A stretch of 64,000 nucleotides of DNA from positions 2,012 through 66,011 of the forward strand of contig JANYKN010000004.1 in the NCBI GenBank assembly GCA_025361565.1, written 5' to 3'. Shown here in pieces: positions 25,959-42,973 of the stretch (the first letter of the stretch is position 1; every line of letters begins with the position of its first letter). The translations under genes and the position numbers were made by a program. Origin of the DNA: Bacteroidota bacterium (GTDB lineage: Bacteria; Bacteroidota; Bacteroidia; Bacteroidales; NBLH01). Below the pieces are notes generated by a model. The model was not told the origin of the DNA. It ran no database searches and worked only from the letters and a program-made list of their open reading frames with translations.

Positions 25959-27017
25959 ATGAAAATTACAGTATTTATTGTTATCCTTTTAATGTTTGTC
26001 GCTAATTTATTAATTGATCAGGATGATATAGAAACTAAAATTACCAAAATCAGAGAAGAATATAATAAAGTAGAATTGAATCTGAAGAATTGCAAAAAAA
26101 AGCTATTTACATATCCAGCAGAGGATGGTGAGAGTGAAATGAAGTTTGAAGCTTATTATTTACCTTATGGCCAATTAGTTAAGCTTATTGCAATTTTTAA
26201 TTTCAAATCTTGTGAAAGACACATCGAATATTGTTGTAAAGCGGATGCTGTTATTTTTATGTTCATACAGGATAAAAGACAAGATGGAACTCAAGTTCAA
26301 GAAAGAGTTTATTTTGATGATAATCATAAAGTTATACGAGACTTAATTAAAGAAAAAAAAATTGATGATAAACGTGATTTTTCAAAAATATCCAATGAAA
26401 ATGCCCCTGAGCAATGGTCAGATTTATCAGAATTGCCTGGATATGCATTTTATGGAAACTGGATAATTGAAAGATACTTAAGTTATCCAGTTTTTGAAGT
26501 GTGCTATGATGTTGATTTAAAAATGAAACAAATAAGGGAAGAATACGACAAAATTGAATCCAATCGCCAATCCGGAGCTTTAAAGGAATATTCAATTTAC
26601 TATACTGACTCAGTTGCTTATTGGAACAATACTCACTATACCGCATTTTATGACGAGCAGAGCAATTTAGTTTTGTTAACTTATTCTATTGGTGAGGAAG
26701 GTTACTATGGCAATTACGAGATATCTTTTAAAGATCGAAAGCCCTTTTTTATTTTAAGTACATCGGGTGAACCTGATGGAAAAGAATCTCAGGGGCGAAT
26801 ATATATTTATAATGATAGGATTATTAATGCTTTAATCAAAGAGAAGTCACCTGATCAAACCCTCGATTTTTCACAGATCGAAAATAAAACCGATAATTCA
26901 ATTATGGATAATGTCAATAATTCAAATAGTGGTTATTCGAGTGATGGTAATTTGAGAGGTGTTGGATATGAACTTTGTAAATTATATAAAGGATTTGAAG
27001 CGGAAAAAGATAATTAA
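25959..27017 (+). CDS. Hypothetical secreted protein built from two copies of a ~150-aa module
   Basis: The two halves align: ITKIREEYNKVELN...VYFDDNHKVIRDLIKEK...DFSKI with MKQIREEYDKIESN...IYIYNDRIINALIKEK...DFSQI. Confidence 0.45.
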   Translation: MKITVFIVILLMFVANLLIDQDDIETKITKIREEYNKVELNLKNCKKKLFTYPAEDGESEMKFEAYYLPYGQLVKLIAIFNFKSCERHIEYCCKADAVIFMFIQDKRQDGTQVQERVYFDDNHKVIRDLIKEKKIDDKRDFSKISNENAPEQWSDLSELPGYAFYGNWIIERYLSYPVFEVCYDVDLKMKQIREEYDKIESNRQSGALKEYSIYYTDSVAYWNNTHYTAFYDEQSNLVLLTYSIGEEGYYGNYEISFKDRKPFFILSTSGEPDGKESQGRIYIYNDRIINALIKEKSPDQTLDFSQIENKTDNSIMDNVNNSNSGYSSDGNLRGVGYELCKLYKGFEAEKDN

Positions 27018-27236: not shown

Positions 27237-27875
27237 ATGATAGGAAATAGTGCCATTAAAATATTGATATGCTTTTTGTTTTTAATAATTACTTTTTATA
27301 GTAGTTTTAGTCAAAAGCAAAATGACCAAACATATAATGATAGTATTATTAAGCAATTTGAATCAAATAAAATGCTTATTCCTCTGTTCAAATATCAGAT
27401 ATTTAAAGCATTATCGCATTATCCTGAATTGAAAAATACAAAGATTGTATTTAAATATAAAAATATAAGGACATCGCTTGCTTGCAGGCCAAGTTTAATT
27501 TCTATTTTTTTGAGAAAGAATAAACGGACTTACAACATTTTTATAAACCGGGATACTTCCAAACTGAAAAATGCAATATTATTGTTTGTACCAATAAATG
27601 CTCAAATTGGTGTAATTGGGCACGAATTGGCGCATATAATTGATTATCAGCATAAATCTATTTATGGGATTATAAGTACCGGGTTTGGATATTTTTTTAC
27701 AAGTTATAAATCAGCTTTGGAAAAAAGAGTTGATCTTATTGCAATTAACCATGGTTTGAAAAAGGAATTAATTGAATTTAGTAATTATGTTATTAATGAG
27801 TCCAATGCACCAACAGAATATAAAAACTATAAAAAGAAAATATATTATTCTCAAATTGATTTAGAAAAACTATAA
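27237..27875 (+). CDS. Hypothetical secreted protein with HExxH motif (putative zinc peptidase)
   Basis: 212 aa with a signal peptide and IGVIGHELAHIIDY. Confidence 0.4.
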   Translation: MIGNSAIKILICFLFLIITFYSSFSQKQNDQTYNDSIIKQFESNKMLIPLFKYQIFKALSHYPELKNTKIVFKYKNIRTSLACRPSLISIFLRKNKRTYNIFINRDTSKLKNAILLFVPINAQIGVIGHELAHIIDYQHKSIYGIISTGFGYFFTSYKSALEKRVDLIAINHGLKKELIEFSNYVINESNAPTEYKNYKKKIYYSQIDLEKL

Positions 27876-27913: not shown

Positions 27914-29110
27914 ATGGCAAATAGAACAATTGTAGCAATGCCCGGCGACGGGATTGGAAAAGCAGTTTTGGATGAAACCATCAGGGTTTTGAATGCTGCC
28001 GGATTTAAAGCGGACTATGTTGAAGGTGATATTGGGTGGGAATTCTGGAAAAGTGAAGGAAACCCTTTACCTGACAGAACTATTCAATTATTAGAAAAGC
28101 ATAAAATTGGCCTGTTTGGTGCCATAACTTCAAAACCAAAAGATGAAGCATTTGATGAATTAGCTCCAGAATTAAAAGCAAAAGGACTTATCTATTCAAG
28201 CCCTATTGTTGGCCTTCGTCAACACTTTGGACTTGATATTTGCACTCGCCCTTGTAGAACCTATAAAGGAAATCCTTTGAATTTTATTAGAAGAGGTAAA
28301 GGTGAAGATATTGAAGAACCGATGGTCGATGTTGTTATTTATCGTCAAAACACAGAAGGTTTATACAGCGGAGTTGAATGGACAAATCCTTCACAACAGG
28401 TGTATGATGCTTTTATGACCCATCCTCAGTTTAAGAAGAACTTTGGGCATGCACCTAAAGAGGAAGTATCGATTTCAACACGAATATTTACAAAAAAAGC
28501 TACAGAAAGGATTCTTCGCGCCGCATTTGAACATGCCAAAAAATACGGTTACAAATCTGTTACATTGTGCGAAAAACCAAATGTAATCCGCGAAACTTCC
28601 GGGATGATGTATAAAATGGCATTGTCAATTCAAAAAAATGATTACCCAAATATTGAGCTTTGGAATACCAATATTGACGCTCAAATGATGTGGCTAACCA
28701 AAAATCCTGAAGATTATGGAGTTATTGTTGCCGGTAATATGTTTGGCGATATTGTTTCTGATGGATTTGCAGGTTTAATAGGAGGTTTGGGATTTGCATG
28801 TAGTGCACAATCTAATCCTGATACAGGAATTGCAGTTTTTGAACCAACCCATGGTTCTGCCCCAAAATATGCAGATTATGCAGTATCAATTGTAAATCCA
28901 ATTGCAATGGTTGAATCTGCAGTAATGATGCTCGATTTTATTGGTGAAGGAGCAATGGCTTCAAAAATCCGGAATGCTGTTGCAGCGGTAATTGCTGAAG
29001 GTAAAGTAAGAACATACGATATGATGAAAATGCGTGGTACTCCTGATGTTATTAATAAAGGTGCTGCTTCAACAAAGCAAATGGCTGACGCTATTATTGC
29101 TAAACTGTAA
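27914..29110 (+). CDS. Isocitrate/isopropylmalate dehydrogenase family protein (substrate not assignable)
   Basis: 398 aa with an N-terminal IVAMPGDGIGKAV, plus YRQNTEGLYSG and NMFGDIVSDGFAGLIGGLGFA. Confidence 0.8.
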   Translation: MANRTIVAMPGDGIGKAVLDETIRVLNAAGFKADYVEGDIGWEFWKSEGNPLPDRTIQLLEKHKIGLFGAITSKPKDEAFDELAPELKAKGLIYSSPIVGLRQHFGLDICTRPCRTYKGNPLNFIRRGKGEDIEEPMVDVVIYRQNTEGLYSGVEWTNPSQQVYDAFMTHPQFKKNFGHAPKEEVSISTRIFTKKATERILRAAFEHAKKYGYKSVTLCEKPNVIRETSGMMYKMALSIQKNDYPNIELWNTNIDAQMMWLTKNPEDYGVIVAGNMFGDIVSDGFAGLIGGLGFACSAQSNPDTGIAVFEPTHGSAPKYADYAVSIVNPIAMVESAVMMLDFIGEGAMASKIRNAVAAVIAEGKVRTYDMMKMRGTPDVINKGAASTKQMADAIIAKL

Positions 29111-29144: not shown

Positions 29145-29696
29145 ATGAATGATGATGTAAAACAACTCTGGGGCGAAGAACTCGCTTGGATTAATGATGA
29201 TGATTTACGTGATAAAACAGCCAAAACCTGGGAGATGGCATTAGAAAAAAGTGTTTTGACAGTTCAGGATTTAAATACAATCCCTTTTACCTTGTTGGTT
29301 CCTAATCTGAAAGTTACTTTTATGGCTCACAAACGAGCAGTAGTGAATATTGCAAAGGATTGTGGAGACCAGATGAACAAATTTTTTACAACCGATTTGC
29401 CGGTTGATATGGATGTGTTAATTTCAGGAGCCATTCTTGCTGATGTTGGTAAAATGCTGGAATATGTTTTAGATACTGATGGTAAGGCAATACAAGGAGC
29501 GTACGGGCAATATATCAGGCATCCTTTTTCTGGGGTTTCATTGGCTGAACAATGTGGTATTCCTGCAGAAGTATGCCATATTATTGCCACCCATGCTGGT
29601 GAAGGAGATATGGTTAAGCGATCTACGGAAGCATATGTTGTTCATCATGCAGATTTTATGACTTTTTTACCTTTTAAAAGCAGATTGAAATTATAA
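29145..29696 (+). CDS. HD-domain protein
   Basis: 183 aa with H..(n)..HD-like residues (LADVGK, IATHAGEGD, VVHHADF). It lies 34 nt downstream of the dehydrogenase gene. Confidence 0.5.
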   Translation: MNDDVKQLWGEELAWINDDDLRDKTAKTWEMALEKSVLTVQDLNTIPFTLLVPNLKVTFMAHKRAVVNIAKDCGDQMNKFFTTDLPVDMDVLISGAILADVGKMLEYVLDTDGKAIQGAYGQYIRHPFSGVSLAEQCGIPAEVCHIIATHAGEGDMVKRSTEAYVVHHADFMTFLPFKSRLKL

Positions 29697-30522: not shown

Positions 30523-32115
30523 CTACTTTATTACATACACTTTTGTATCTAAAACATTATTAACTTTAAACCATGACATACGCGAAGCAGAGTCAAGATT
30601 TTTCCAATAATTGGTATATGTGCCTGGAGATGTTGCTGTGTATCCATTTACAGAAATAAGATTTAGTGATTGAGCAGCAAGCATAGCATCTAGCTGATAT
30701 TCAACACAATTTGTTTTTATTTCGATAGGTTCATATGAAACAACTGATTTTTCAGGAATATCTTTCATCTTTTCCATTAAAAATTTTACTCTTGATTGAG
30801 CTACAAACTTTTCAGTCCGGTACGAACTTGCTTCTTTATAATAATTGTCTGCAACAACAAAAGAAGCAATTAAAATAAACCAAATCATCGAAAGTTTATA
30901 CTTATTGTTCAATAGATTTCTTACGATGAAAGCTACAGTTATAGCATAAAAAATCAATTCAATATTAATGATTCTTGTAATTGAGCGCATGGAACCAAAA
31001 CCTGGCAAACTGAATACAAATTTATATAAGGAATAGTTTTCAAAACGAATAAACAATAAAAAGGTAATGATTGTAGTGAGTGTCAAAATCTTTAAATTAT
31101 CATCTATAACAAATTGATCCAATTTATTTTTAGTACTTATTTTTATTAGAACTAAAATCATCAAAATAATAAGACAAATGTTTGCCAATCCTCCTGCAAA
31201 AATCTGGTGATCCCAAAATGCAGGAATATCAACTCCAATATTTGAGAGAAAATCCCAGATTAAACTACCTTTTTGGCTATAGAAAAATGATAAAAATGTT
31301 GGTATAGTTGGCAAAATATGTTCATAGCTATTCATACCAACCATTTTTGATCTTGCTATATAAGGTAAAATCAGTGGTAATGTAATAAGCACATTTATGA
31401 TTAAAGAAATAGATATCCAGCCTAACCATTTTAGGTTTCTCAGATGTTGAATAAATTTTTTCCAATGAAAAATGAACACCAATAAAAACATTACTGAAAT
31501 TGGAATCATTAACATTAAACCTAAATATATGCCGCAATATAATTGATAAACAGTTACTAAGATGGTAAGGAAAAAATATTTCGGGCTAAAGTCTTTGATA
31601 AATAGTACAAGCATTGCAAAAGCTAATGGTATTGGAAAACGCGGAAATGTTTGAGCATGTGTTAACTGAGATTGCAGCGCCATTGAAAATGCAAATACCA
31701 TTGCTCCAATTGCAGCAGCATAATTGTTTTTGAAAAGTAATTTCAACAAAAAATAGCAACTTGCATAAGACAATATTGCCATTAAAACAAACCACAATTG
31801 GAATGATGTTTCTCTATCAAAATTCAACAACCTAAAAATAATATAAAAAGGAGCAGTACCAAGCAAATTGTCAGAATATGAAATTACATCTTTTTCAGGG
31901 TACATAAAGGGTGCGTTCCAAAAGGATTTTTCTTGTCCGGTAATAAATAAATGTGCATGTTCCAGAAAATAAGTATTTAATCTGGCATCTCCTAAATCGC
32001 CTGGATAGTGTGAAAAGGATGTTCCAATAATATTAAATACAATAAAATATAGACCAATTGCAAGACCAAAAATAAATGGGAAAAGCCGGAGTAATAAACC
32101 AAATTTAATTTTCAT
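30523..32115 (-). CDS. Large polytopic membrane protein (possible GT-C-type glycosyltransferase)
   Basis: 530 aa with more than 10 hydrophobic helices and a soluble C-terminal domain. It ends 17 nt upstream of the GT2 gene on the same strand. Confidence 0.45.
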
Positions 32116-32195
32116 TAAAAATATAAATCATAAAATTTCACCTTTCTAGCATTATATTCATCATAAAAAGGTTCAATAAATTGATGAAGTAATCA

Positions 32196-32771
32196 CTAAA
32201 TCAAAATCAAAAAATCATCGGGTACTTTATCGCGAACTTCAGGTGGTATTACTTTTTCTTTAAAACCATCTAAAAAGTCCCTGGTTTTTTTAGAGATAAG
32301 TTCTTGAATTTCATCAATAGCCTTTTCGCCAATGGCAAAAGGGAAATTTCCTAAAAGCAGGCGATTTTGAAAGCACATGCCACCAATCCGATATGAATTA
32401 TATTCTAAAATCGGTTTTTTAGTTATAATACAATCTGAAATGAAGTCTGAAAGTTTATGATTTTCCCGATTTGCTAATCTTTCTTGTCTTTTATCAAAAT
32501 CAACATACAAATCGTAGTACATTTTAATGCGCTTCATACTTTCTACTGATAACTCCGAAGCTGCATTATGTTGACAAACAGAACATAACGCATATTCAAA
32601 TATAACTTCAAATTTTTGGCTGCTTATATTTTTTTGAAAAGCTTTTTCGATCAAATAAGGAGAATTATCTGTGAGTAGATTTTTACCACAAATCATACAA
32701 TGCCCAATAGGCTTGCTGGTTTTAGAAGATAAAAATTCTTCTGGCAATGATATTGAAGGAAAATTCCACAT
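32196..32771 (-). CDS. Hypothetical protein with two CxxC pairs (zinc-ribbon-like)
   Basis: 191 aa with CMICGKN ... CSVCQH. I recognise no family. Confidence 0.4.
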   Translation of the reverse strand: MWNFPSISLPEEFLSSKTSKPIGHCMICGKNLLTDNSPYLIEKAFQKNISSQKFEVIFEYALCSVCQHNAASELSVESMKRIKMYYDLYVDFDKRQERLANRENHKLSDFISDCIITKKPILEYNSYRIGGMCFQNRLLLGNFPFAIGEKAIDEIQELISKKTRDFLDGFKEKVIPPEVRDKVPDDFLILI

Positions 32772-32831
32772 TATTAGAGTATCAATTCTTATTTATCGAT
32801 TTTAAAGATTCAATTTTGAATTTGGTTTAAA

Positions 32832-33716
32832 CTATTTGCTGAATGTAATTTTGGTTGTAACTTTATTCGAATCAACCACTTCATTAACAACCATTACAAA
32901 TTTATTTTCAGTTAGGCTTTCGAAGTGAATTGTATCTTTTCTGTTAACTCCATTTGGTTCAAGTAAAAGCATATTTAATTCAGAATTGAATTCCCATTTT
33001 CCAATTTGTGGCTCAGGTGTAAATCCTTTTCGCTCAAAGGTATGATCTTCATTAAAAGTCAATCTGGCATTGGCTTTCAGATTTTTAAGTGTTTGAATTA
33101 TATTGATGCTATCCATATGATTCCTTGGTAAATTATCCTGATAATCAGATAGTTGCCATTGTCCAATTATAATTTCCGAATCATTGTTTTCTGATAAACT
33201 GGTATATACAAAGTAGAAAATTACTGCTAAAGCAATAGCGGCTATTGCATATATAATTGGTTTTGAAATAGTTTCCGGTGATTGATTCTTTTTTGAGGAA
33301 TTGGATTTTTTTACTGATTTTTTTCCGCCCGTTAATTCTTCATATGCATCAATTAATACTTCATATGAAGCTTCGAAAGTGTCTTCATACGCCGCAACCC
33401 AGCTAAAAGTGTAAAAGAAATGATCAGTATAAAGATTTGACTCAATTTTTTCAAGCACAAATGGAATAATTCCTATCTGATTATCAAGTGCATACTCAAG
33501 TGATTGAATCATTTCTTTACTAGAAACCGAATTTTTATCGATGATTAAAAGCAAGATCTTAGAATCTTCAACAGTTGCTTTTAGCGAATCATTTTCTTCC
33601 TGCTTATAATCCCTTGGCGATACCCAGCATGAAATACCATCGGATTCCAGTTTTGAAACCAATTTTTTTACAAGTGATTTGTTTTCTTTTTGATAAACCA
33701 AACAAAGGTCTTTCAT
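32832..33716 (-). CDS. TIR-domain protein with one TM helix and a C-terminal lipocalin-like extracytoplasmic domain
   Basis: 294 aa. Residues 1-~125 fit the TIR_2 pattern (LCLVYQKENKSLVKKLVSKLESDGISCWVSPRDY...LLLIIDKNSVSSKEMIQSLEYAL...IIPFVLE). A basic stretch, GGKKSVKKSNSSKKN, precedes the TM segment IIYAIAAIALAVIFYFVYT (aa 153-172). The C-terminus (IIGQWQLSD...IGKWEF...LTENKFV) is paralogous to the neighbouring lipoprotein. Confidence 0.7.
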   Translation of the reverse strand: MKDLCLVYQKENKSLVKKLVSKLESDGISCWVSPRDYKQEENDSLKATVEDSKILLLIIDKNSVSSKEMIQSLEYALDNQIGIIPFVLEKIESNLYTDHFFYTFSWVAAYEDTFEASYEVLIDAYEELTGGKKSVKKSNSSKKNQSPETISKPIIYAIAAIALAVIFYFVYTSLSENNDSEIIIGQWQLSDYQDNLPRNHMDSINIIQTLKNLKANARLTFNEDHTFERKGFTPEPQIGKWEFNSELNMLLLEPNGVNRKDTIHFESLTENKFVMVVNEVVDSNKVTTKITFSK

Positions 33717-33879
33717 GTTTTAAAGTCGTATTATAGATTTGTTAATTGAGTTGTAGGCCAACTGAATATTTTAATCAAGATAACCGGAAAATCTTCTGAT
33801 AATGATAGATTAGCAGATTGGATAATAACTATGATTATAAACATAATAGCCTATCCATATTAAAAAGGTAAAACAAAAT

Positions 33880-34299
33880 TTATTTTTTCTTATTGGCTTG
33901 TTTTTCCCAGGTAATGGTATTTTTACTGTCATTGATTTCTATTGAAACGACCAATTTCGAATTTGTTAATTCAACAACATCAGAAACTTCAGAATTTCCA
34001 TCCTCATATGTCAGCGTCAATTTTTTTGCATCAGGACTCAAAACCCATTTTCCAATGCTGCTTTCTTCCAAAATAGTCTTTGTAAATGTGCCATCTGCGT
34101 TTATAACCCATAATGAACTTGCTTTCATTTCGTCAAGAGTTTCCTTGAGTTTTTGTTTTATATCTGGTGAAATTTCTTGACTATATGCTATATCGGCAGC
34201 CTTCCATTCTCCAACTATTAATCCGGATGGATCTTTTTTGCAGGAAACAACAAAAATAGAAATTAGTAATAAAGCAGCTAAAAATCCTGAAGTTTTCAT
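33880..34299 (-). CDS. Lipocalin-like domain lipoprotein
   Basis: The start is trimmed to MKTSGFLAALLLISIFVVSC (lipobox). LIVGEWKA...DGTFTK...IGKWVL...LTNSKLVV matches the Lipocalin_4-type pattern and the C-terminal domain of 32832-33716. Confidence 0.6.
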   Translation of the reverse strand: MKTSGFLAALLLISIFVVSCKKDPSGLIVGEWKAADIAYSQEISPDIKQKLKETLDEMKASSLWVINADGTFTKTILEESSIGKWVLSPDAKKLTLTYEDGNSEVSDVVELTNSKLVVSIEINDSKNTITWEKQANKKK

Positions 34300-34748
34300 A
34301 ATAATTAAGTTTTGATTAAACAAAGCAAAAATAAACAAATCTATTTAATTAACTCTTAAATCCTTAAGTCTTTTTATAAGTATTTGTAAATGAATATATT
34401 TAATGCATAGACAAAGAATGAAACAATCTTTGTGCTCCATTTGTTATTGACTCATAAAGTAGAAAGAGCCAGCTTGGTTGTAGTATAAAATCTAGTATAC
34501 AAGTATCAGAAGGCATTAATTATTGATCCTTTTTTTCAACGTTGTTGATGAAAACAAACTTTTTTTATTGTGAAAAAGAAAACCCGGATAATGAATAATT
34601 GGTACTCTATTTGGTATAAAAATATTTATTATTGTATAGTCTTTTTGTATAAAGGATTAATTTAGTATATTTGAAGACCTGTTAAATACTAAATTACAAA
34701 AGAAAATTTATTGTTTAATTGTATACAATGCTTTGAAATTATTTTAGA

Positions 34749-35312
34749 ATGGACGAAATTTTAATTGATCGGGATAGAATACGCGATATATTTGTCGGTA
34801 TAAAACCTTATTTTAAAGATAAACTTGGAAAATATACTCACCAACGTATTTCAGGTGACTGGCATTTTCACGGTTTGGGTTTTGTAAATGGCGATATGAC
34901 ATACGTATTTGGTATCAATATTGGATTTTTTAAAGTAAGCACCAAAAAGCATTATAGTCACGTTGGTATGAATCTACTTGTTCGTACCAATGGAATTAAC
35001 AGGGAATTGCGACTTAAGTACCGTGATTTTTTCAGGCAAAATCTATCCAACTGGATTTCTGATGCAGAAATGATTTATACTTCAGACAGAGGTGGGATTG
35101 GAAGTGAATTTCCTAAATACAGAGCTTTGAGCGAATTCGAAAATGATGAACAAATTATAAATTTCCTTAAAGAATGTATTGATGGAATGCATAAAATATA
35201 TCCATTGATTGCAGCAAATCCGGATAAATTATTCGAAAATGTTTTACGGGCAGCCCCTCCATGGCACGATTTACTTGTTCAAATTGCTGATGAATTTAGT
35301 AACCAGGAATAA
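34749..35312 (+). CDS. Hypothetical protein
   Basis: A 187-aa ORF with coding-like composition. It lies 23 nt upstream of the BatA-like gene. I recognise no family. Confidence 0.35.
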   Translation: MDEILIDRDRIRDIFVGIKPYFKDKLGKYTHQRISGDWHFHGLGFVNGDMTYVFGINIGFFKVSTKKHYSHVGMNLLVRTNGINRELRLKYRDFFRQNLSNWISDAEMIYTSDRGGIGSEFPKYRALSEFENDEQIINFLKECIDGMHKIYPLIAANPDKLFENVLRAAPPWHDLLVQIADEFSNQE

Positions 35313-35335: not shown

Positions 35336-37393
35336 ATGAGTTTTTTATATCCATCCTTTTTTTGGGCTTTGTTTTTAATTGCGATTCCGGTAATTATCCA
35401 TCTTTTTAATTTCCGTGTATATAAAACTGTATATTTCAGCAATATTAAGTTTTTGCAGGATATTAAGGATGTAAGCGATTCAAAATCAAAAATTAAACAT
35501 TTAATAGTTCTTTTATTACGAATACTTGCCATAGTTGCACTTACCATTGCTTTTGCAGTCCCTTTTGTACCAGTTCTAAAAACTAAAGATTCATTCAAGG
35601 AGCGAATAGTTACCATTTATCTGGATAATTCGTATAGTATGAATGCTGGAAGTTTGCATGGAAACTTATTTGACGCTGCAAAAGAAAGAGCGCGAAAAAT
35701 TGTTTCTTCATATGATAACCGACAAAAGTTTTTTTTCCTTGATAATGATATGGAATCAAAGCACCGCATTATTACCAATAAACAGCAAATAACTGAATTT
35801 ATCAATAATAGTGTGCTTTCGGGTGCGGTTTCTGATTTTTCCAAGCTTATTCAATTTCAAAGAAATTTTATGAAACAGGAAAATGAAATCAAACAATATC
35901 ACCATTTATTTTACATGATTTCGGATTTTCAGAAAGTAGTTTCGGATTTTCGGAATTTTGAATCAGATTCCAATACTTTTTTTTATTTATTACCCCTCGC
36001 AACCAATTCGACCAATAATATTTATATCGACTCGTGCTGGTTTTCATCACCGGGCCGAAACTTGAATAAAAATGAAAATTTGAATGTAAGGGTTGTAAAC
36101 AAAGGAAAGGAAGAATATCAGGATATTCCTATTCGGTTATTTGTAAACGGAAGACAAAAAGCGATAAATAATTTTCAAATAGATGCAAATAGTTCTAAAA
36201 CTGTGGTCTTGAATTATTCAAACACCGAAAGTGGAATTTTGCCTTCTTCGCTTGAAATCACTGATTATCCGATTACTTATGACAACAAATTCTATTTCAG
36301 TTACCAAATTAATAAACAAACTTCGATTTTAATTATCAATAAATCGGAAAACAAATATCTGAATGCTTTGTATAAAAGCGATTCATCCTTTGTGCTTCAA
36401 AATAGTAATACAGGAAGTTTGCGAACTTCCGAATTTCCAAATTATCAGGTTATTATACTTGATGAGCTTGATGGTTTTTCATCCGGATTAATTGGAGAAC
36501 TTAAACGTTTTGTTTCAAATGGTGGTGTAATGGTTTGTATTCCAGGCGAAAATACAAACTTGATTGAGCTTAATAATTTACTTTCTTCAGTTAACGCTAA
36601 CCTGATGAACGGAATTGTAAAACAAGTTACACAGCTTGAAAAGATTAATTATGAGCATTTTATTTATAAGGATGTTTTTATTAAAAATGAAGATAAATTA
36701 ATTCTTCCCGAAATAAAAAGCTATTTTCCGGTGAATTTAAGTACACAATCAGTAAGCAATATTCTTTTAAGTTCCTTATCTGGCAAACCTTTGCTTATAC
36801 AAACCAATTTTGATAAAGGTAAAGTGTATACTTTTACGTTTCCATTGGCAATTGAAAACAGCGATTTTGTTGTTCATTCTCTCTTTGTTCCAACCTTGTA
36901 TAATATTGCTGCTTTTAGTCAAACCTATGAGAGATTGTTTTATACCATTGGTAATGATAATATTATAGATTTAAACCTGAAACCCACCACAGGCGATAAA
37001 AGCTTTCATTTGATTGATTTGGAAGGAAAAACAGATTTTATTCCGCAATTTTCGGGAATTGGTGAGCAAGGTATCCGTTTAAACTTGATGAAAAACATCG
37101 TATTTGCCGATAATTATTTATTGAAAGTGAACAGCAACAATTTAAAATGTCTTTCTTTTAATTACAATAGAAAGGAATCAGATCTGGATTTTTATAAAAA
37201 TGATGAAATAGAAAAGCTAATTGAAGACTACAAACTTTTGAATTTTAGTATTTTATCTGCAAATTTGAATGAATTGCAAACCCAAATTGAAGATTCATTA
37301 AAAGAAAGAAAAGACTACTGGAAATGGTTTATTTCATTTGCTTTTATTTTTCTTATTTCTGAGATATTCATTCTTAGATTATGGAAAGATTAG
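35336..37393 (+). CDS. BatA N-terminal double-TM domain protein (aerotolerance-related family), with C-terminal TM anchor
   Basis: 685 aa with an N-terminal MSFLYPSFFWALFLIAIPVIIHLFNFR typical of BatA_N/TIGR02226, and a C-terminal helix WFISFAFIFLISEIFIL. Confidence 0.6.
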   Translation: MSFLYPSFFWALFLIAIPVIIHLFNFRVYKTVYFSNIKFLQDIKDVSDSKSKIKHLIVLLLRILAIVALTIAFAVPFVPVLKTKDSFKERIVTIYLDNSYSMNAGSLHGNLFDAAKERARKIVSSYDNRQKFFFLDNDMESKHRIITNKQQITEFINNSVLSGAVSDFSKLIQFQRNFMKQENEIKQYHHLFYMISDFQKVVSDFRNFESDSNTFFYLLPLATNSTNNIYIDSCWFSSPGRNLNKNENLNVRVVNKGKEEYQDIPIRLFVNGRQKAINNFQIDANSSKTVVLNYSNTESGILPSSLEITDYPITYDNKFYFSYQINKQTSILIINKSENKYLNALYKSDSSFVLQNSNTGSLRTSEFPNYQVIILDELDGFSSGLIGELKRFVSNGGVMVCIPGENTNLIELNNLLSSVNANLMNGIVKQVTQLEKINYEHFIYKDVFIKNEDKLILPEIKSYFPVNLSTQSVSNILLSSLSGKPLLIQTNFDKGKVYTFTFPLAIENSDFVVHSLFVPTLYNIAAFSQTYERLFYTIGNDNIIDLNLKPTTGDKSFHLIDLEGKTDFIPQFSGIGEQGIRLNLMKNIVFADNYLLKVNSNNLKCLSFNYNRKESDLDFYKNDEIEKLIEDYKLLNFSILSANLNELQTQIEDSLKERKDYWKWFISFAFIFLISEIFILRLWKD

Positions 37394-38895: not shown

Positions 38896-39861
38896 ATGAT
38901 TAATATTGGAATAATTGGAGGTGCCGGCTATACTGCGGGTGAGTTGATTAGAATACTGCTATGGCATCCAATTGCAAAAATTCAGTTTATTCAAAGTAAT
39001 AGCCATTCTGGCGAGGACATTACTTCCATTCACCGCGACTTAATAGGTGATACAGATTTAAAATTTAGTGAACCAGATTTTAATGCCGTCGATGTTATTT
39101 TTTTATGTTCCGGTCATGGTATGTCTAAAGTTTTTATGGAAACCCATCCGCTCCCTGAGCATTTGAAAGTAATAGATTTAAGTACCGATTTCAGGCAAAT
39201 TTCAGAGGATAATGATTTTATTTATGGTTTGCCTGAATTGAATAGAGAAGATATTGAATCGGCAGAAAGAATAGCCAACCCTGGATGTTTTGCCACAGCC
39301 ATTGAACTGGCTCTTTTGCCTTTGGCAGAACATCAAATGCTTAATAATGATATACATGTAAATGCAATTACTGGTTCTACCGGAGCTGGCCAAAAACCGA
39401 GTTCAACTTCACATTTTAGCTGGAAAAACAACAATATTGCAGTTTATAAACCATTTGAACATCAGCATTTAGCTGAAATTGTTCAAAGCATGAAGCAACT
39501 GCAACCTAGTTTTAATCATGAACTTAATTTTATCCCGGTAAGAGGAAATTTTAGCAGGGGGATTATGGCAACCGCATATACAGAATGCAATTGGAGCCAG
39601 GACGAAATTACAGAAAACTACATACAATATTATCAAGATCATCCATTTGTAACGATTGTAAATGAAATTCTGGATGTGAAGCAAGTTGTAAATACAAACA
39701 AATGTTTGTTGTTTCCTTCAAAATATGGATCAAAAATTATGATAATTTCGGTAATTGACAACCTTTTAAAAGGTGCATCGGGGCAGGCTGTTCAGAATAT
39801 GAACCTGATGTTTGGCCTTGATGAAACAACGGGTTTGAATTTAAAACCTGTTGCATTTTAG
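38896..39861 (+). CDS. argC: N-acyl-gamma-glutamyl-phosphate reductase
   Basis: 321 aa with IGIIGGAGYTAGELIR and the catalytic Cys motif ANPGCFATA. Confidence 0.92.
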   Translation: MINIGIIGGAGYTAGELIRILLWHPIAKIQFIQSNSHSGEDITSIHRDLIGDTDLKFSEPDFNAVDVIFLCSGHGMSKVFMETHPLPEHLKVIDLSTDFRQISEDNDFIYGLPELNREDIESAERIANPGCFATAIELALLPLAEHQMLNNDIHVNAITGSTGAGQKPSSTSHFSWKNNNIAVYKPFEHQHLAEIVQSMKQLQPSFNHELNFIPVRGNFSRGIMATAYTECNWSQDEITENYIQYYQDHPFVTIVNEILDVKQVVNTNKCLLFPSKYGSKIMIISVIDNLLKGASGQAVQNMNLMFGLDETTGLNLKPVAF

Positions 39862-39921
39862 TAGATGATGTTTATAAATTATTAATTCAACTTAATTATA
39901 TAACCAAAGGAATTTTTAAAG

Positions 39922-41049
39922 ATGAAATTATTTGATGTTTACAGTCAGTATGATGTAGATTTAAGAAAAGCCAAAGGCGCAATTCTTACAGACGTTGAAG
40001 GAACAGACTATCTTGATTTTTATGGTGGACATGGAGTAATTTCTATTGGGCATGCACATCCAAGATATATCGATGCTATTGAAAATCAATTACATCAAAT
40101 TGCATTTTATACCAATGTGATACAAAATAGTTTGCAGGTTGAATTGGCTGAAAAGCTTGGAAAACTTTCAGGATATACTGATTATAACTTATTTCTGGGT
40201 AATTCAGGAGCAGAGGCAGTTGAAAATGCTCTAAAAGTGGCTAGTTTCAAAACCGGGAAAAATAAAATAATTGCAATTAAAGGTTCGTTCCATGGCAGGT
40301 GCAGTGGATCAATAGCTATAACTGATAATCCTGTCATTCAATCACCTTTTAATCAAGTGCATAATGTCAGTTTTATAGCCTTAAACGATTTTGAAGCACT
40401 TGAAAAGGAATTTAAGGATAAAGATGTTGCCGGAATTATTATTGAAGGTATCCAGGGAGTTGGAGGAGTATATGAAGGAACACCTGAATTTTTGAAAGCA
40501 GTAAGGGAAATCTGTACAAAGACTGGAGCAATGATGATTATGGATGAAATTCAGTCTGGATATGGCCGAACTGGTAAATTTTTTGCACATCAGTGGGCTG
40601 ATGTTAAACCTGATATAATCACTGTTGCAAAAGGAATGGGAAATGGGTTTCCAATATCCGGAGTTTTGATTGCACCAAATATTGAAGCAAAAAAAGGAAT
40701 GCTGGGAACCACTTTTGGAGGAAACCATTTGGCTTGTGCATCAGCCATTGCTGTTCTGGATGTTATGAAGGATGAGAACCTAATGGAAAATGCACTTCAA
40801 ATGGGCGAATATCTTAAAAAAGAACTTAAACAAATGGATTTTATTAAAGATATTCGTGGAAGAGGGTTGATGATTGGTATTGAAATGGAAAATGCAGCAG
40901 AATTTAGGAAACAATTGATACTTGAAGAAATGATATTTACTGGTTTTTCAGGACCAAATACTATTCGATTATTACCTCCTTTAAATATTACCATGAAGGA
41001 AGCTAAAAAATTTATAAAAGCATTGATATCAACAACCACAACTGATTAA
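39922..41049 (+). CDS. argD: Class III aminotransferase, acetyl/succinyl-ornithine aminotransferase
   Basis: 375 aa with YLDFYGGHGVISIGHAHP, MIMDEIQSGYGRTGKFFA and the PLP-Lys motif TVAKGMGNGFP. Confidence 0.85.
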   Translation: MKLFDVYSQYDVDLRKAKGAILTDVEGTDYLDFYGGHGVISIGHAHPRYIDAIENQLHQIAFYTNVIQNSLQVELAEKLGKLSGYTDYNLFLGNSGAEAVENALKVASFKTGKNKIIAIKGSFHGRCSGSIAITDNPVIQSPFNQVHNVSFIALNDFEALEKEFKDKDVAGIIIEGIQGVGGVYEGTPEFLKAVREICTKTGAMMIMDEIQSGYGRTGKFFAHQWADVKPDIITVAKGMGNGFPISGVLIAPNIEAKKGMLGTTFGGNHLACASAIAVLDVMKDENLMENALQMGEYLKKELKQMDFIKDIRGRGLMIGIEMENAAEFRKQLILEEMIFTGFSGPNTIRLLPPLNITMKEAKKFIKALISTTTTD

Positions 41050-41052
41050 AAT

Positions 41053-41826
41053 ATGGATGATTTGACCATTGTTAAGGTTGGAGGTAATTTAATCGACAAT
41101 GCAGCTGAGCTTGATTCATTTTTAAGTGCTTTTGCCAGTATTCAAGGAAAAGCACTCTTGGTTCATGGAGGTGGTAAATTAGCCACCAATATGGCTACCA
41201 GGCTTGGAATTGAAACTAAAATGGTAAACGGTCGTCGTATTACTGATGCTGAAAACCTTAAACTGGTAACCATGGTTTATGCAGGATTTGTCAATAAAAA
41301 TATAGTTGCTTTATTGCAGTCGAAAGGAAAAAATGCGATGGGTATTTGTGGAAGTGATTTGAATATCATCAAATCTGCAAAACGGAAACATCCTACCTTG
41401 GATTTTGGATTTGTAGGGGATATTACCGAAGTGAATGCCATTGCTTTATCAGATTTAATTGAAAAAAATATTACGCTCGTTATTGCGCCAATTACTCATG
41501 ATGGAAAAGGGCAATTGTTAAATACCAATGCTGATTCCATTGTAACAGAAATTGCTATTGTACTTTCGAAAATATATAAGGTAAAATTGATTTATAGTTT
41601 TGAAAAGGCTGGTGTGCTGCGAAGCCTTGAAAATGAGATGGATGTGATTCCAACTTTATCCGAAGCCGAAATTATAGAAATGCAGGAGAGAGGTTCCATT
41701 CATACTGGAATGATGCCTAAAACAGATAATGCCATTAAAGCCATGAAAAATGGTGTAGTGGAAGTAATTATTGGGAATTTGGTTGATATTCAAAAGAATA
41801 ACTTACCTGGAACAAGAATAGTATAA
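41053..41826 (+). CDS. argB: Acetylglutamate kinase
   Basis: 257 aa with IVKVGGNLID, LVHGGG and NTNADS. It starts 3 nt after the argD stop. Confidence 0.9.
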   Translation: MDDLTIVKVGGNLIDNAAELDSFLSAFASIQGKALLVHGGGKLATNMATRLGIETKMVNGRRITDAENLKLVTMVYAGFVNKNIVALLQSKGKNAMGICGSDLNIIKSAKRKHPTLDFGFVGDITEVNAIALSDLIEKNITLVIAPITHDGKGQLLNTNADSIVTEIAIVLSKIYKVKLIYSFEKAGVLRSLENEMDVIPTLSEAEIIEMQERGSIHTGMMPKTDNAIKAMKNGVVEVIIGNLVDIQKNNLPGTRIV

Positions 41827-41905
41827 TTTGAAAATAGAAATTAGAAACTAGAAATTATATAATTTAATTTCAAAGTTCCAATTTCCAATTTCTGAAAATA
41901 AAGGA

Positions 41906-42973
41906 ATGGAAAAACTCGAAAAATATATAAATTTGGCAACAGATACATTGAAACAACTAATTGCAATCCCTTCCTACAGTAAAGAAGAAAAGCAAGTTGC
42001 TGATTTAATGGAGAATATTTTAATCAATCAAGGTTATAAAACCAATCGCAAAAAAAACAATGTTTGGGTTTATAGCAAAGATTATATGGAAGGAAGACCA
42101 ACTTTATTAATGAATTCTCATTTAGACACTGTAAAAGCCAGCGATAAATGGACGAAAGATCCATTTAATCCCTTGATAGAAGATGAGAAATTATATGGCC
42201 TTGGAAGTAATGATGCCGGTGGTTGTTTGGTTTCGTTAATGGCTACTTTTTTAGCATTGGAACAGGAAAATCAATCCTATAACCGTGTTTTTGTAGCTTC
42301 AGCCGAAGAAGAGAACTCTGGATTTGATGGTTTTGAATGTGTACAATCTGAATTGGGCAAACTTGATGTTGGAATTGTTGGTGAGCCAACACTTATGGAC
42401 ATGGCCATTGCCGAAAAAGGCTTGATGGTATTAGATTGCGAAGCTGAAGGTAAATTAGGTCATGCAGCTAGAAATGAAGGGATTAATGCCATCAGTATTG
42501 CTGTTGAAGATATTAATTGGTTGCAAACGTACAAATTTGAAAAAGAATCTGAAATTCTTGGCCAAGTTAAGTTGACCGTAACACAAATAGACGCTGGTCA
42601 CCAGCACAATGTAGTTCCTGCAAGTTGTAAATTTGTGGTAGATGTAAGAACCAATGAGCATTACAGCAATGAAGTGGCTTATGAATTCATCAAAAATAAT
42701 CTAAAAAGCAAGGTTACTGCCAGATCTTTCAGGTTAAATTCTTCAGGTATTGAAATGGATCATCCATTAATTAAAGCCGGACTTGAAATGGGAATGAATT
42801 GGTATGGATCGCCAACTACATCAGATCAGGCTATTATGATTGGTTTTCCTACGTTGAAGCTTGGCCCTGGCGATTCTGCACGATCTCATACTGCTGATGA
42901 GTTTATTTACCTAGATGAAATTAAAAATGGAATTGAAAAATATTTTAATTTGTTAAATGGATTGAAGTTTTAA
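41906..42973 (+). CDS. argE: M20 family deacylase (acetylornithine deacetylase / ArgE-DapE-like)
   Basis: 355 aa with LMNSHLDTVKA, LYGLGSNDAGG and ASAEEENSG. The gene sits in the arg cluster. Confidence 0.75.
   Translation: MEKLEKYINLATDTLKQLIAIPSYSKEEKQVADLMENILINQGYKTNRKKNNVWVYSKDYMEGRPTLLMNSHLDTVKASDKWTKDPFNPLIEDEKLYGLGSNDAGGCLVSLMATFLALEQENQSYNRVFVASAEEENSGFDGFECVQSELGKLDVGIVGEPTLMDMAIAEKGLMVLDCEAEGKLGHAARNEGINAISIAVEDINWLQTYKFEKESEILGQVKLTVTQIDAGHQHNVVPASCKFVVDVRTNEHYSNEVAYEFIKNNLKSKVTARSFRLNSSGIEMDHPLIKAGLEMGMNWYGSPTTSDQAIMIGFPTLKLGPGDSARSHTADEFIYLDEIKNGIEKYFNLLNGLKF

Follow-up and report, generated by a model that had tools for sequence, protein, structure and literature searches.

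A bacterial TIR protein without the canonical catalytic glutamate, predicted to be membrane-tethered, joined to a lipocalin-like barrel, with a paralogous lipoprotein as its partner

Introduction

To our knowledge, every bacterial TIR domain of established mechanism, mostly from phage defence, works by cleavage of NAD+. Here we analyse a locus from uncultured Bacteroidota in which a TIR domain devoid of the canonical catalytic glutamate is predicted to be joined, through a single transmembrane (TM) helix, to a periplasmic lipocalin-like barrel, and in which the corresponding gene is paired with that of a lipoprotein paralogous to the barrel. The locus lies on the minus strand of a stretch of 64,000 nucleotides, called the window in the following (GenBank assembly GCA_025361565.1, contig JANYKN010000004.1, positions 2,012 to 66,011 of the forward strand; Bacteroidales, NBLH01), for which a preliminary description, made by reading the letters alone, had proposed a transmembrane signalling or suicide module. 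TIR domain proteins as such are known, and what is new here is a Glu-less and membrane-tethered TIR that is joined to a lipocalin-like barrel and accompanied by a paralogous lipoprotein.

The bacterial TIR domains that cleave NAD+ (TIR NADases), such as Thoeris ThsB, TIR-STING, the TIR-APAZ protein of SPARTA, AbTir and SpbK, share the TIR fold with the protein of the window, but the latter is Glu-less, appears to be membrane-anchored with a periplasmic domain, and is encoded outside any defence island. The differences extend to the partners, since no ThsA (SIR2-SLOG or Macro/TM) is found beside the TIR gene as it would be in Thoeris, and since there is neither a CD-NTase or cyclase neighbour nor a SAVED or STING domain fused to the TIR, unlike in the TIR effectors of CBASS and Pycsar and in TIR-STING. 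Likewise the C-terminus of the protein is made up of a TM helix and a lipocalin-like barrel rather than the APAZ domain of SPARTA, and no Argonaute is encoded nearby.

A resemblance of another kind is offered by the Toll-like and interleukin-1 receptors (TLR/IL-1R), which also cross the membrane once, between an ectodomain that binds ligands and a cytoplasmic TIR; here, too, an outer domain, a single TM helix and an inner TIR are predicted. The glutamate that is critical for NADase activity occurs in more than 90% of NADase groups and in less than 10% of MyD88, TIRAP and endosomal TLRs (Toshchakov & Neuwald, PMC7075850), so that the latter share with the protein of the window a TIR without the catalytic residue. 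However, the TIR is N-terminal in our protein and the polarity is reversed (type II), the host is a bacterium, the ectodomain is a lipocalin-like barrel and not built from leucine-rich repeats (LRR) or immunoglobulin domains, and the protein is not known to have a death-domain adaptor or kinase. The resemblance to TLRs is one of architecture and should be read as an analogy, which does not by itself indicate orthology or a shared mechanism of signalling.

Closer in sequence is a large set of proteins that we refer to as TIR-TM-X, which have in common with the protein of the window that the TIR comes first and is followed by a Lys-rich linker, one hydrophobic helix and a presumably extracytoplasmic module, but most of which keep the glutamate, along with a PRDI.PG loop, and carry outer domains unrelated to lipocalins. 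For the barrel itself the closest described families are the Bacteroidota lipoproteins of the Lipocalin_4 (PF13648), DUF5004 (PF16395) and DUF4923 families, none of which has an established function. The lipoprotein encoded upstream of the TIR gene is a bona fide Lipocalin_4 protein, while the TIR-linked barrel is a divergent relative that has invariant Y-x-D and F-x-R-x-G motifs, absent from the free lipoprotein, and appears to form a sub-family of its own.

Results and Discussion

Domain architecture and topology of the TIR protein

The minus strand has three open reading frames (ORFs) in head-to-tail order, at 33880-34299, 32832-33716 and 32196-32771, all of them present as initially described, and they are separated by 163 nt between the lipoprotein and TIR genes and by 60 nt between the TIR stop and the start of the gene for a Cys4 (ZNR) protein, in keeping with the spacing first reported for the latter. 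The three-gene region has a G+C content of about 30%, the same as the rest of the window, and DNA of the locus was found only in four sediment-metagenome DNA runs. The central gene (32832..33716) encodes a protein of 294 residues, and from Pfam, AlphaFold2 (AF2) and Foldseek results it is predicted to be a bitopic membrane protein consisting of a TIR domain, a linker, a TM helix and a lipocalin-like barrel.

The TIR_2 domain takes up residues 1-130 (33327..33716, minus strand) and is predicted to be cytoplasmic. The TIR_2 family (PF13676) matches residues 6-116 with E=1.9e-12 and 48.1 bits against a cut-off of 28, and PF01582 (TIR) is above threshold as well (24.4 versus 21.3). In an AF2 model built from an alignment of 33 sequences, residues 1-129 form alternating strands and helices with a pLDDT of about 90, and when searched against the PDB with Foldseek this part retrieved RPS4, Hydra TRR-2, SARM1, MyD88 and SPARTA with E=3e-6 to 1e-3 and a probability of 1.00, along with AbTir, a Bacillus cereus TIR and TIR-STING. 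By sequence the best PDB match of the domain is the TIR of the Hydra Toll-related receptor TRR-2 (E=4e-6).

The domain is followed by a Lys-rich juxtamembrane linker (residues 131-152; 33261..33326, minus strand), apparently disordered with a pLDDT below 50 over residues 133-153, and by a single TM helix at approximately residues 153-175 (33192..33260, minus strand), which AF2 models as a helix from 152 to 175. The hydropathy profile has one hydrophobic 19-mer, at about residues 154-172, with a Kyte-Doolittle mean of 1.8-2.9 in all 33 family members, and there is no N-terminal hydrophobic segment in the 294-residue protein. Among the 33 members the 20 residues before the TM helix contain on average 6.5 Lys or Arg and 1.0 Asp or Glu, and the 20 residues after it 1.2 and 3.5, respectively. 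Because of these flanking charges the positive-inside rule predicts a cytoplasmic TIR and a periplasmic barrel, i.e. an N-in/C-out type II topology, and a periplasmic location of the barrel is furthermore in agreement with its paralogue being a secreted lipoprotein. The architecture and topology put forward in the preliminary description, with an N-terminal TIR, a TM helix and an outer lipocalin-like domain, can accordingly be retained.

The canonical catalytic glutamate is missing

Four independent alignments agree that Ser72 (codon 33501..33503, minus strand) stands where TIR NADases have their catalytic Glu, E642 in SARM1. When the family profile is aligned by HMMER with oyster TIR-STING (6wt6; …SEWSKFEM…) and with RPS4 (4c6r; …SVWCVRELE…), the Trp of the WxxxE motif coincides with Glu68 (codon 33513..33515, minus strand) and the catalytic Glu with residue 72. 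The same register is obtained by hhalign with the TIR of human SARM1, in a sequence identical to PDB chains, so that W638 pairs with E68 and E642 with S72. It is obtained again when SARM1, the 33 members of the family and the 61 outside relatives next best in score are aligned jointly by MAFFT, in which case E642 shares its column with residue 72 and the Trp position is likewise taken by E68. Residue 72 is Ala in 22 members of the window's family, Gln in four, Ser in three, Ile in two and Gly and Leu in one each, and hence acidic in none of the 33, whereas its equivalent is Glu in 50 of the 61 nearest outside relatives.

The preliminary description held that the segment SSKEMIQSLEYAL supplies a Glu aligned with the catalytic one and proposed E74 for mutation, but the four alignments put S72 there instead. 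E74 can be ruled out as the catalytic residue, being both mis-registered and variable in the family (20 Glu, five Lys, two each of Asn, Thr and Ser, and one each of Met and Gln). The TIR fold then proposed is well supported, but the canonical catalytic Glu is missing. Since it is absent from the family in concordant alignments, and since it is critical for NADase activity (Toshchakov & Neuwald, PMC7075850), a canonical NADase activity of this TIR is unlikely. The BB loop is furthermore two residues shorter in the family and without Pro-Gly (PRDFKQEE as compared to PRDIxPGxxW).

The absence bears directly on the model that was first suggested for the locus, according to which the barrel senses an envelope signal and the TIR acts as a NADase leading to cell death or arrest, something that would now call for a relocated acid in the form of E68. 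This residue is situated one helical turn ahead of the catalytic position on the pocket-facing side, its counterpart in SARM1 being a ligand-contacting Trp, and it is Glu or Asp in 27 of the 33 members. The TIR fold is intact, cleavage of NAD+ is the dominant known function of bacterial TIRs, and the TIR-TM-X relatives as well as some deep lineages with the same TIR-TM-lipocalin arrangement retain the Glu, which makes it plausible that the ancestor was an enzyme. However, with the canonical Glu lost from 33 of 33 family members and kept in most outside relatives, with position 68 being Ile, Gln, Thr or Lys in the six remaining and otherwise intact members, and with a BB loop that is two residues short and has no Pro-Gly, an output by NAD+ cleavage and suicide is improbable, a judgement to which the genomic context described below contributes.

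The barrel and its paralogous lipoprotein

The C-terminal domain (residues 183-294; 32835..33170, minus strand) is predicted to be a periplasmic eight-strand lipocalin-like barrel, an assignment to which AF2, Foldseek, Pfam and a lipoprotein hidden Markov model (HMM) all contribute. AF2 models residues 185-293 as eight strands and one helix with a pLDDT of about 80-90, and against the PDB this part of the model retrieves the DUF4822 protein 4nw4, bovine odorant-binding protein, Bos d 2, lipocalin-15 and EF0376. Two Pfam families match residues 179-292 just below threshold, namely DUF5004 (8.7e-4; 19.7 versus 21.6) and Lipocalin_4 (4e-3; 18.4 versus 22.4).

The gene immediately upstream (33880..34299, minus strand) encodes a lipocalin-like lipoprotein of 139 residues that passes the Lipocalin_4 threshold comfortably (PF13648; E=5.4e-10, 40.5 bits versus 22.4). 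Its signal peptide ends in a lipobox, ...FVVSC, the Cys20 of which is invariant in 27 of 27 distinct orthologues. An acidic cluster after this Cys marks surface-exported lipoproteins in Bacteroidota, and the residues found here are K-K-D-P, S-Q-K-P or N-K-T-P, without such a cluster. The lipoprotein and the TIR protein are 29% identical over 129 residues in BLASTP (E=3e-8), and an HMM of the 27 lipoproteins matches the C-terminus of the TIR protein with E=4.5e-15, which bears out the paralogy that had been read from shared motifs.

The barrel is recognised by the signature G185-x-W187, Y192-x-D194, F227-x-R229-x-G231 and G239-x-W241. Five of these residues, Y192, D194, F227, R229 and G231, are invariant in the TIR-linked barrel and missing from the free lipoprotein, and the two would appear to be distinct sub-families. 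The Y-x-D and F-x-R-x-G residues, of which Y192, D194 and R229 make up an invariant polar site, are at the same time the best candidates for a putative ligand or partner site.

Across 38 deep representatives of the TIR-TM-barrel proteins, at least 90% conservation is seen at nine barrel positions (G185, W187, Y192, D194, F227, R229, G231, G239 and W241) versus only three TIR positions (K13, L23 and L121), and over deep time the barrel thus seems to be the most constrained element. This is an argument for a purely periplasmic function, in which the barrel and the lipoprotein would bind or shuttle a lipid, an isoprenoid or a lipoprotein acyl chain between the membranes, and in which the TIR is a vestigial and decaying remnant of a TIR-TM-X ancestor. 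That several lineages are without the C-W..P-R-D core of the TIR, and that the barrel signature also exists in TIR-free proteins, points in the same direction. On the other hand, full-length TIR domains are kept in about 45 representative clusters, and within the clade of the window conservation is slightly higher in the TIR than in the barrel, with mean pairwise identities of 54% and 49%, respectively. The best conserved parts of the TIR are here the near-invariant helix alphaA (KKLVSKLES) and the segment W106-F114, and eight residues (K13, E24, C30, R35, P85, W106, A109 and L121) are invariant. Judging from this pattern the TIR is still under selection in the window's clade, and while we regard a vestigial TIR as the main rival to the reading that we favour below, we also consider it unlikely.

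The TIR-free occurrences of the barrel signature (G.W.L.DY.DN...F.R.GF...G.W) are of several kinds. It is found in single lipoproteins (P0206 and P0189), in tandem secreted proteins with two barrels (P0150, P0161, P0176 and P0201) and next to other periplasmic segments in fusion proteins (P0179, P0218 and P0249), and it would seem to be a lipocalin-like sub-family still without a name.

A conserved gene pair with a clade-limited neighbour

A word-indexed search returned 67 homologues of the TIR protein, nearly all of them full-length and stemming from metagenome-assembled genomes (MAGs) of Bacteroidales or Bacteroidota, and among 185,579 species, each represented by a single genome, only 24 loci came to light, all in uncultured Bacteroidota-type MAGs, some of which are labelled Chlorobiota. 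As far as these searches reach, the module appears to be confined to a narrow group of uncultured Bacteroidota. Neighbourhoods were mapped by phmmer and by annotation-free clustering of ORFs, which together covered the window and 37 loci, 34 of them with the TIR gene.

Wherever a fetched locus retained intact DNA upstream, the TIR gene is immediately preceded, on the same strand, by the gene for the lipoprotein. The pairing spans both clade A (46-83% identity) and clade B (32-39%), it is likewise seen in a deeper member that retains the Glu (P0116), and in several clade-B loci the lipoprotein and TIR reading frames abut or overlap according to their ORF coordinates. We take this to indicate that the lipoprotein is a genuine conserved partner of the TIR protein.

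In two loci one of the paired genes is broken. A frameshift at 5083-5578 of L006 splits the lipoprotein gene, leaving the signal peptide and the GKW start in a different frame from the remainder, and at 8001-9172 of L032 the TIR-barrel gene is spread over two frames that overlap; either case may be a pseudogene or an error of MAG assembly.

The third gene of the window (32196..32771, minus strand) encodes a presumably cytoplasmic, zinc-ribbon-like protein of 191 residues with a CxxC...CxxC pattern, in which C63 and C66 are invariant and C25 and C28 near-invariant, and with the motifs IEKAF and IFEYA.C..C. The AF2 model is of high quality (pLDDT 89.3, pTM 0.85), yet a fold search against the PDB gave no match (best E=0.37), and the protein belongs to no Pfam, NCBIfam or PADLOC family.

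The preliminary description treated the three genes as a unit, and for the window's clade at any rate the Cys4 protein could indeed be imagined as the TIR's partner or output in the cytoplasm. Its gene is found downstream on the same strand, 7-700 nt away, in all clade-A loci (at least 46% identity), the terminator scan of the window found none between the two genes, and the protein is predicted to be cytoplasmic and well folded. However, the gene is absent beside L019 and all clade-B members, an unrelated gene of 200 residues is inserted between the TIR and Cys4 genes in L012 and L014, and in Cyclobacteriaceae homologues of the Cys4 protein adjoin a polyprenyl synthase with no TIR gene nearby. 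Moreover, the clade-A loci share an extended synteny that includes BatA, a protein of 187 residues (U187) and a GT2 glycosyltransferase, and the adjacency may therefore only mirror relatedness. This distribution rules out the Cys4 protein as an obligate third component, and a three-component system is very improbable even as a clade-specific arrangement; the Cys4 protein is best regarded as an apparent orphan family outside the core module.

Genomic context and the question of defence

The surroundings of the pair do not speak for a role in defence. PADLOC gave no match, even at E<=1, for the three proteins and one flanking gene, and NCBIfam, applied to the three proteins and one neighbour, returned only BamJ with E=0.0055, covering the signal peptide. 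No SIR2, SLOG or Macro domain was found in Pfam scans of the 17 ORFs between 23937 and 42973, nor any CD-NTase or cyclase, SAVED, STING or Argonaute by Pfam and PADLOC in the TIR protein or its neighbours, so the earlier observation that SIR2, Macro, SLOG and Argonaute partners are lacking nearby was correct.

The window and the other clade-A loci are instead flanked by Iso_dh, a conserved protein of 183 residues, GT2, a PMT-like membrane protein, BatA and arginine biosynthesis genes, and the clade-B loci by YebC, a B3_4 protein, a methyltransferase, signal peptidases, Lgt and RF-1. Parts of this synteny recur across the clades (Iso_dh with the 183-residue protein, cluster c6, and YebC/B3_4/methyltransferase), and only occasional toxin-antitoxin pairs are seen near the loci.

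We thus found no evidence for the defence role suggested at the outset, the neighbours being of housekeeping type, PADLOC being silent and inheritance looking vertical, and the same facts, together with the absence of defence genes and mobile elements flanking the pair, count against the suicide effector discussed above. Because the pair is conserved, the Cys4 gene is limited to one clade, the flanks are housekeeping genes and PADLOC gives no match, the lipoprotein and TIR genes are best interpreted as a vertically inherited two-gene module and not as a three-gene defence cassette.

A proposed role in the cell envelope

The reading that we favour, with a probability of about one half, is that of a vertically inherited two-gene envelope module in which a non-catalytic TIR of the assembly or adaptor type is coupled to binding events at the barrel. 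The periplasmic barrel would bind a small hydrophobic molecule of the envelope or a partner protein, the co-expressed lipoprotein would work together with the barrel or hand over cargo to it, and occupancy of the barrel would alter the self-association of the membrane protein. The Glu-less TIR could then serve as an assembly or adaptor surface at the cytoplasmic face without cleaving NAD+, much like the TIR domains of MyD88, TIRAP and endosomal TLRs. We infer the binding of a ligand or partner, the interaction between lipoprotein and barrel, and the signalling by TIR assembly, and we prefer a non-catalytic role because there is deep constraint in the barrel, because the lipoprotein is a stable companion, and because the TIR is still selected in the clade despite being Glu-less.

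Several points weigh against this interpretation. The pairing is not universal, since the lipoprotein gene is missing beside the TIR gene of a lineage that is deeper still and has a degenerate TIR (P0137). Furthermore, the prevalence of an acidic residue at the pocket-facing position 68 makes a relocated catalytic residue conceivable, and we know of no established precedent for non-catalytic signalling by a bacterial TIR.

What makes the pair worthy of attention is that a well-conserved TIR without the Glu appears to be tethered to the inner membrane and tied to a conserved barrel in the periplasm as well as to a lipoprotein paralogue. Should the TIR have a function, it would provide a tractable case for asking whether bacterial TIRs can signal by assembly in the manner of animal TLR adaptors, and, as Glu-containing and Glu-less lineages coexist in one superfamily, also how the transition from enzyme to scaffold came about. 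If, however, the TIR is vestigial, the finding shrinks to an uncharacterised periplasmic lipocalin-like module of modest interest.

A wider class of TIR-TM-X proteins

An exhaustive HMM search of 1.84 billion representative sequences gave 18,470 matches at E<=1e-3 and 8,178 at E<=1e-10. Approximately 45 cluster representatives are full-length TIR-TM-barrel proteins, and next beyond these come many longer proteins that match profile positions 2-180 only, that is the TIR, linker and TM helix, with E=1e-23 to 1e-26. A membrane-tethered TIR with an outer domain might have been taken for a one-off, but proteins with an N-terminal TIR, a TM helix and a variable C-terminal part turn out to be numerous. 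In ten such TIR-TM-X proteins that were scanned, the TM helix is followed by DUF6273, LRR, LVIVD, TPR with a CsgG/LpoB-like domain, ankyrin or PPC; examples among P0199-P0259 are DUF6273 in P0199, P0217, P0220 and P0254, LRR in P0204 and P0230, LVIVD in P0238 and TPR with CsgG/LpoB-like in P0210. The Glu (in the context ...S.QVLREVERA...) and the PRDI.PG BB loop are retained in these relatives, the former at the frequency of 50 in 61 given above. Within the 38 deep TIR-TM-barrel representatives, residue 72 is Gln in 11, Glu in eight, Leu in four, Phe in four, Ala in three and something else in the others, and some of these lineages are without even the C-W..P-R-D core. A census of the top 150 representatives by regular expressions and hydropathy counted 52 proteins with an N-terminal TIR and one TM helix, a figure for qualitative use only, as the method is crude and motif misses inflate the class scored as having no TIR.

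As the nearest outside relatives share the TIR-linker-TM arrangement and keep the canonical Glu, the protein of the window is a derived branch of a large and apparently unstudied class of single-pass proteins with N-terminal TIRs, and our literature search found no paper on the TIR-TM-lipocalin architecture or on the TIR-TM-X class. One may go further and suggest that the protein of the window and its thousands of TIR-TM-X relatives are unrecognised bacterial transmembrane receptors resembling inverted TLRs, in which the outer binding domain varies and the TIR is inside, and of which the lipocalin branch has switched from NAD+ catalysis to TIR assembly with the lipoprotein as a co-receptor. 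This we hold to be quite unlikely, but if true it would be the first case of scaffold-type TIR signalling in bacteria. In any case, TIR-TM-X proteins with LRR, DUF6273, LVIVD and other outer domains could couple envelope events to NAD+ metabolism, and the class is arguably a more valuable lead than the gene pair of the window.

Among the matches of the family profile there are also proteins of 600-2200 residues with 4-7 tandem TIR-profile matches (P0131, P0132, P0143, P0155, P0162 and P0192), i.e. multi-TIR repeat proteins.

Transcription signals and neighbouring genes

The lipoprotein gene starts with an ATG, and a TTG further upstream at 34338 is unlikely to be its start because the homologues begin at the MK... 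position. Two TAnnTTTG motifs with overlapping spacing (TAGATTTG and TATTTTTG; 34326..34343, minus strand) were located by motif search 27-44 nt upstream of this ATG and are a candidate for the -7 promoter element of the unit, TAnnTTTG being the -7 promoter consensus of Bacteroidota. The motif occurs neither in the 163-nt spacer between the lipoprotein and TIR genes nor in the 60-nt spacer between the TIR and Cys4 genes, and it is a frequent one, at 0.87 per kb per strand. A sigma-70 promoter scan, which does not cover Bacteroidota promoters, was at background with 20 found versus 16.4 ± 4.5 in shuffled sequences, and no hairpins resembling intrinsic terminators are present in 32000-34800. The placement of the motif and the lack of hairpins are compatible with a single transcript of the unit, if weakly so. 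Rfam and tRNA scans of the window gave no match.

Farther from the pair, an arginine-biosynthesis-like cluster on the plus strand at 38896-42973, with a semialdehyde dehydrogenase, a class-III aminotransferase, an amino-acid kinase and an M20 peptidase or deacetylase, confirms the housekeeping character of the region. The conserved 183-residue protein, for which there is no Pfam match, is encoded on the plus strand at 29145-29696 beside Iso_dh (27914-29110), and it recurs beside an isocitrate or isopropylmalate dehydrogenase gene and near the TIR pair in the distant loci L011, L019, L026 and L032, which hints at an ancestral neighbourhood. Additional ORFs without a Pfam family are found at 30523-32115 (minus strand), encoding a multi-pass membrane protein of 530 residues next to GT2, a homologue of which weakly matches PMT_2, and on the plus strand at 25959-27017 (352 residues) and 27237-27875 (212 residues).

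On the other side of the pair, the 187-residue protein without a family (34749-35312, plus strand) is encoded immediately upstream of a BatA/VWA membrane protein of the aerotolerance type (35336-37393, plus strand). As none of the clade-A loci departs from this pairing (clusters c5 and c4), these two proteins may be a functional pair of their own. At one species-level locus represented by different samples, BatA is intact with 685 residues in L002 and L003 and split into 453 and 200 residues in L001 (1424-4565), and a DDE_5 transposase that adjoins it is likewise intact in L003 and fragmented in L001.

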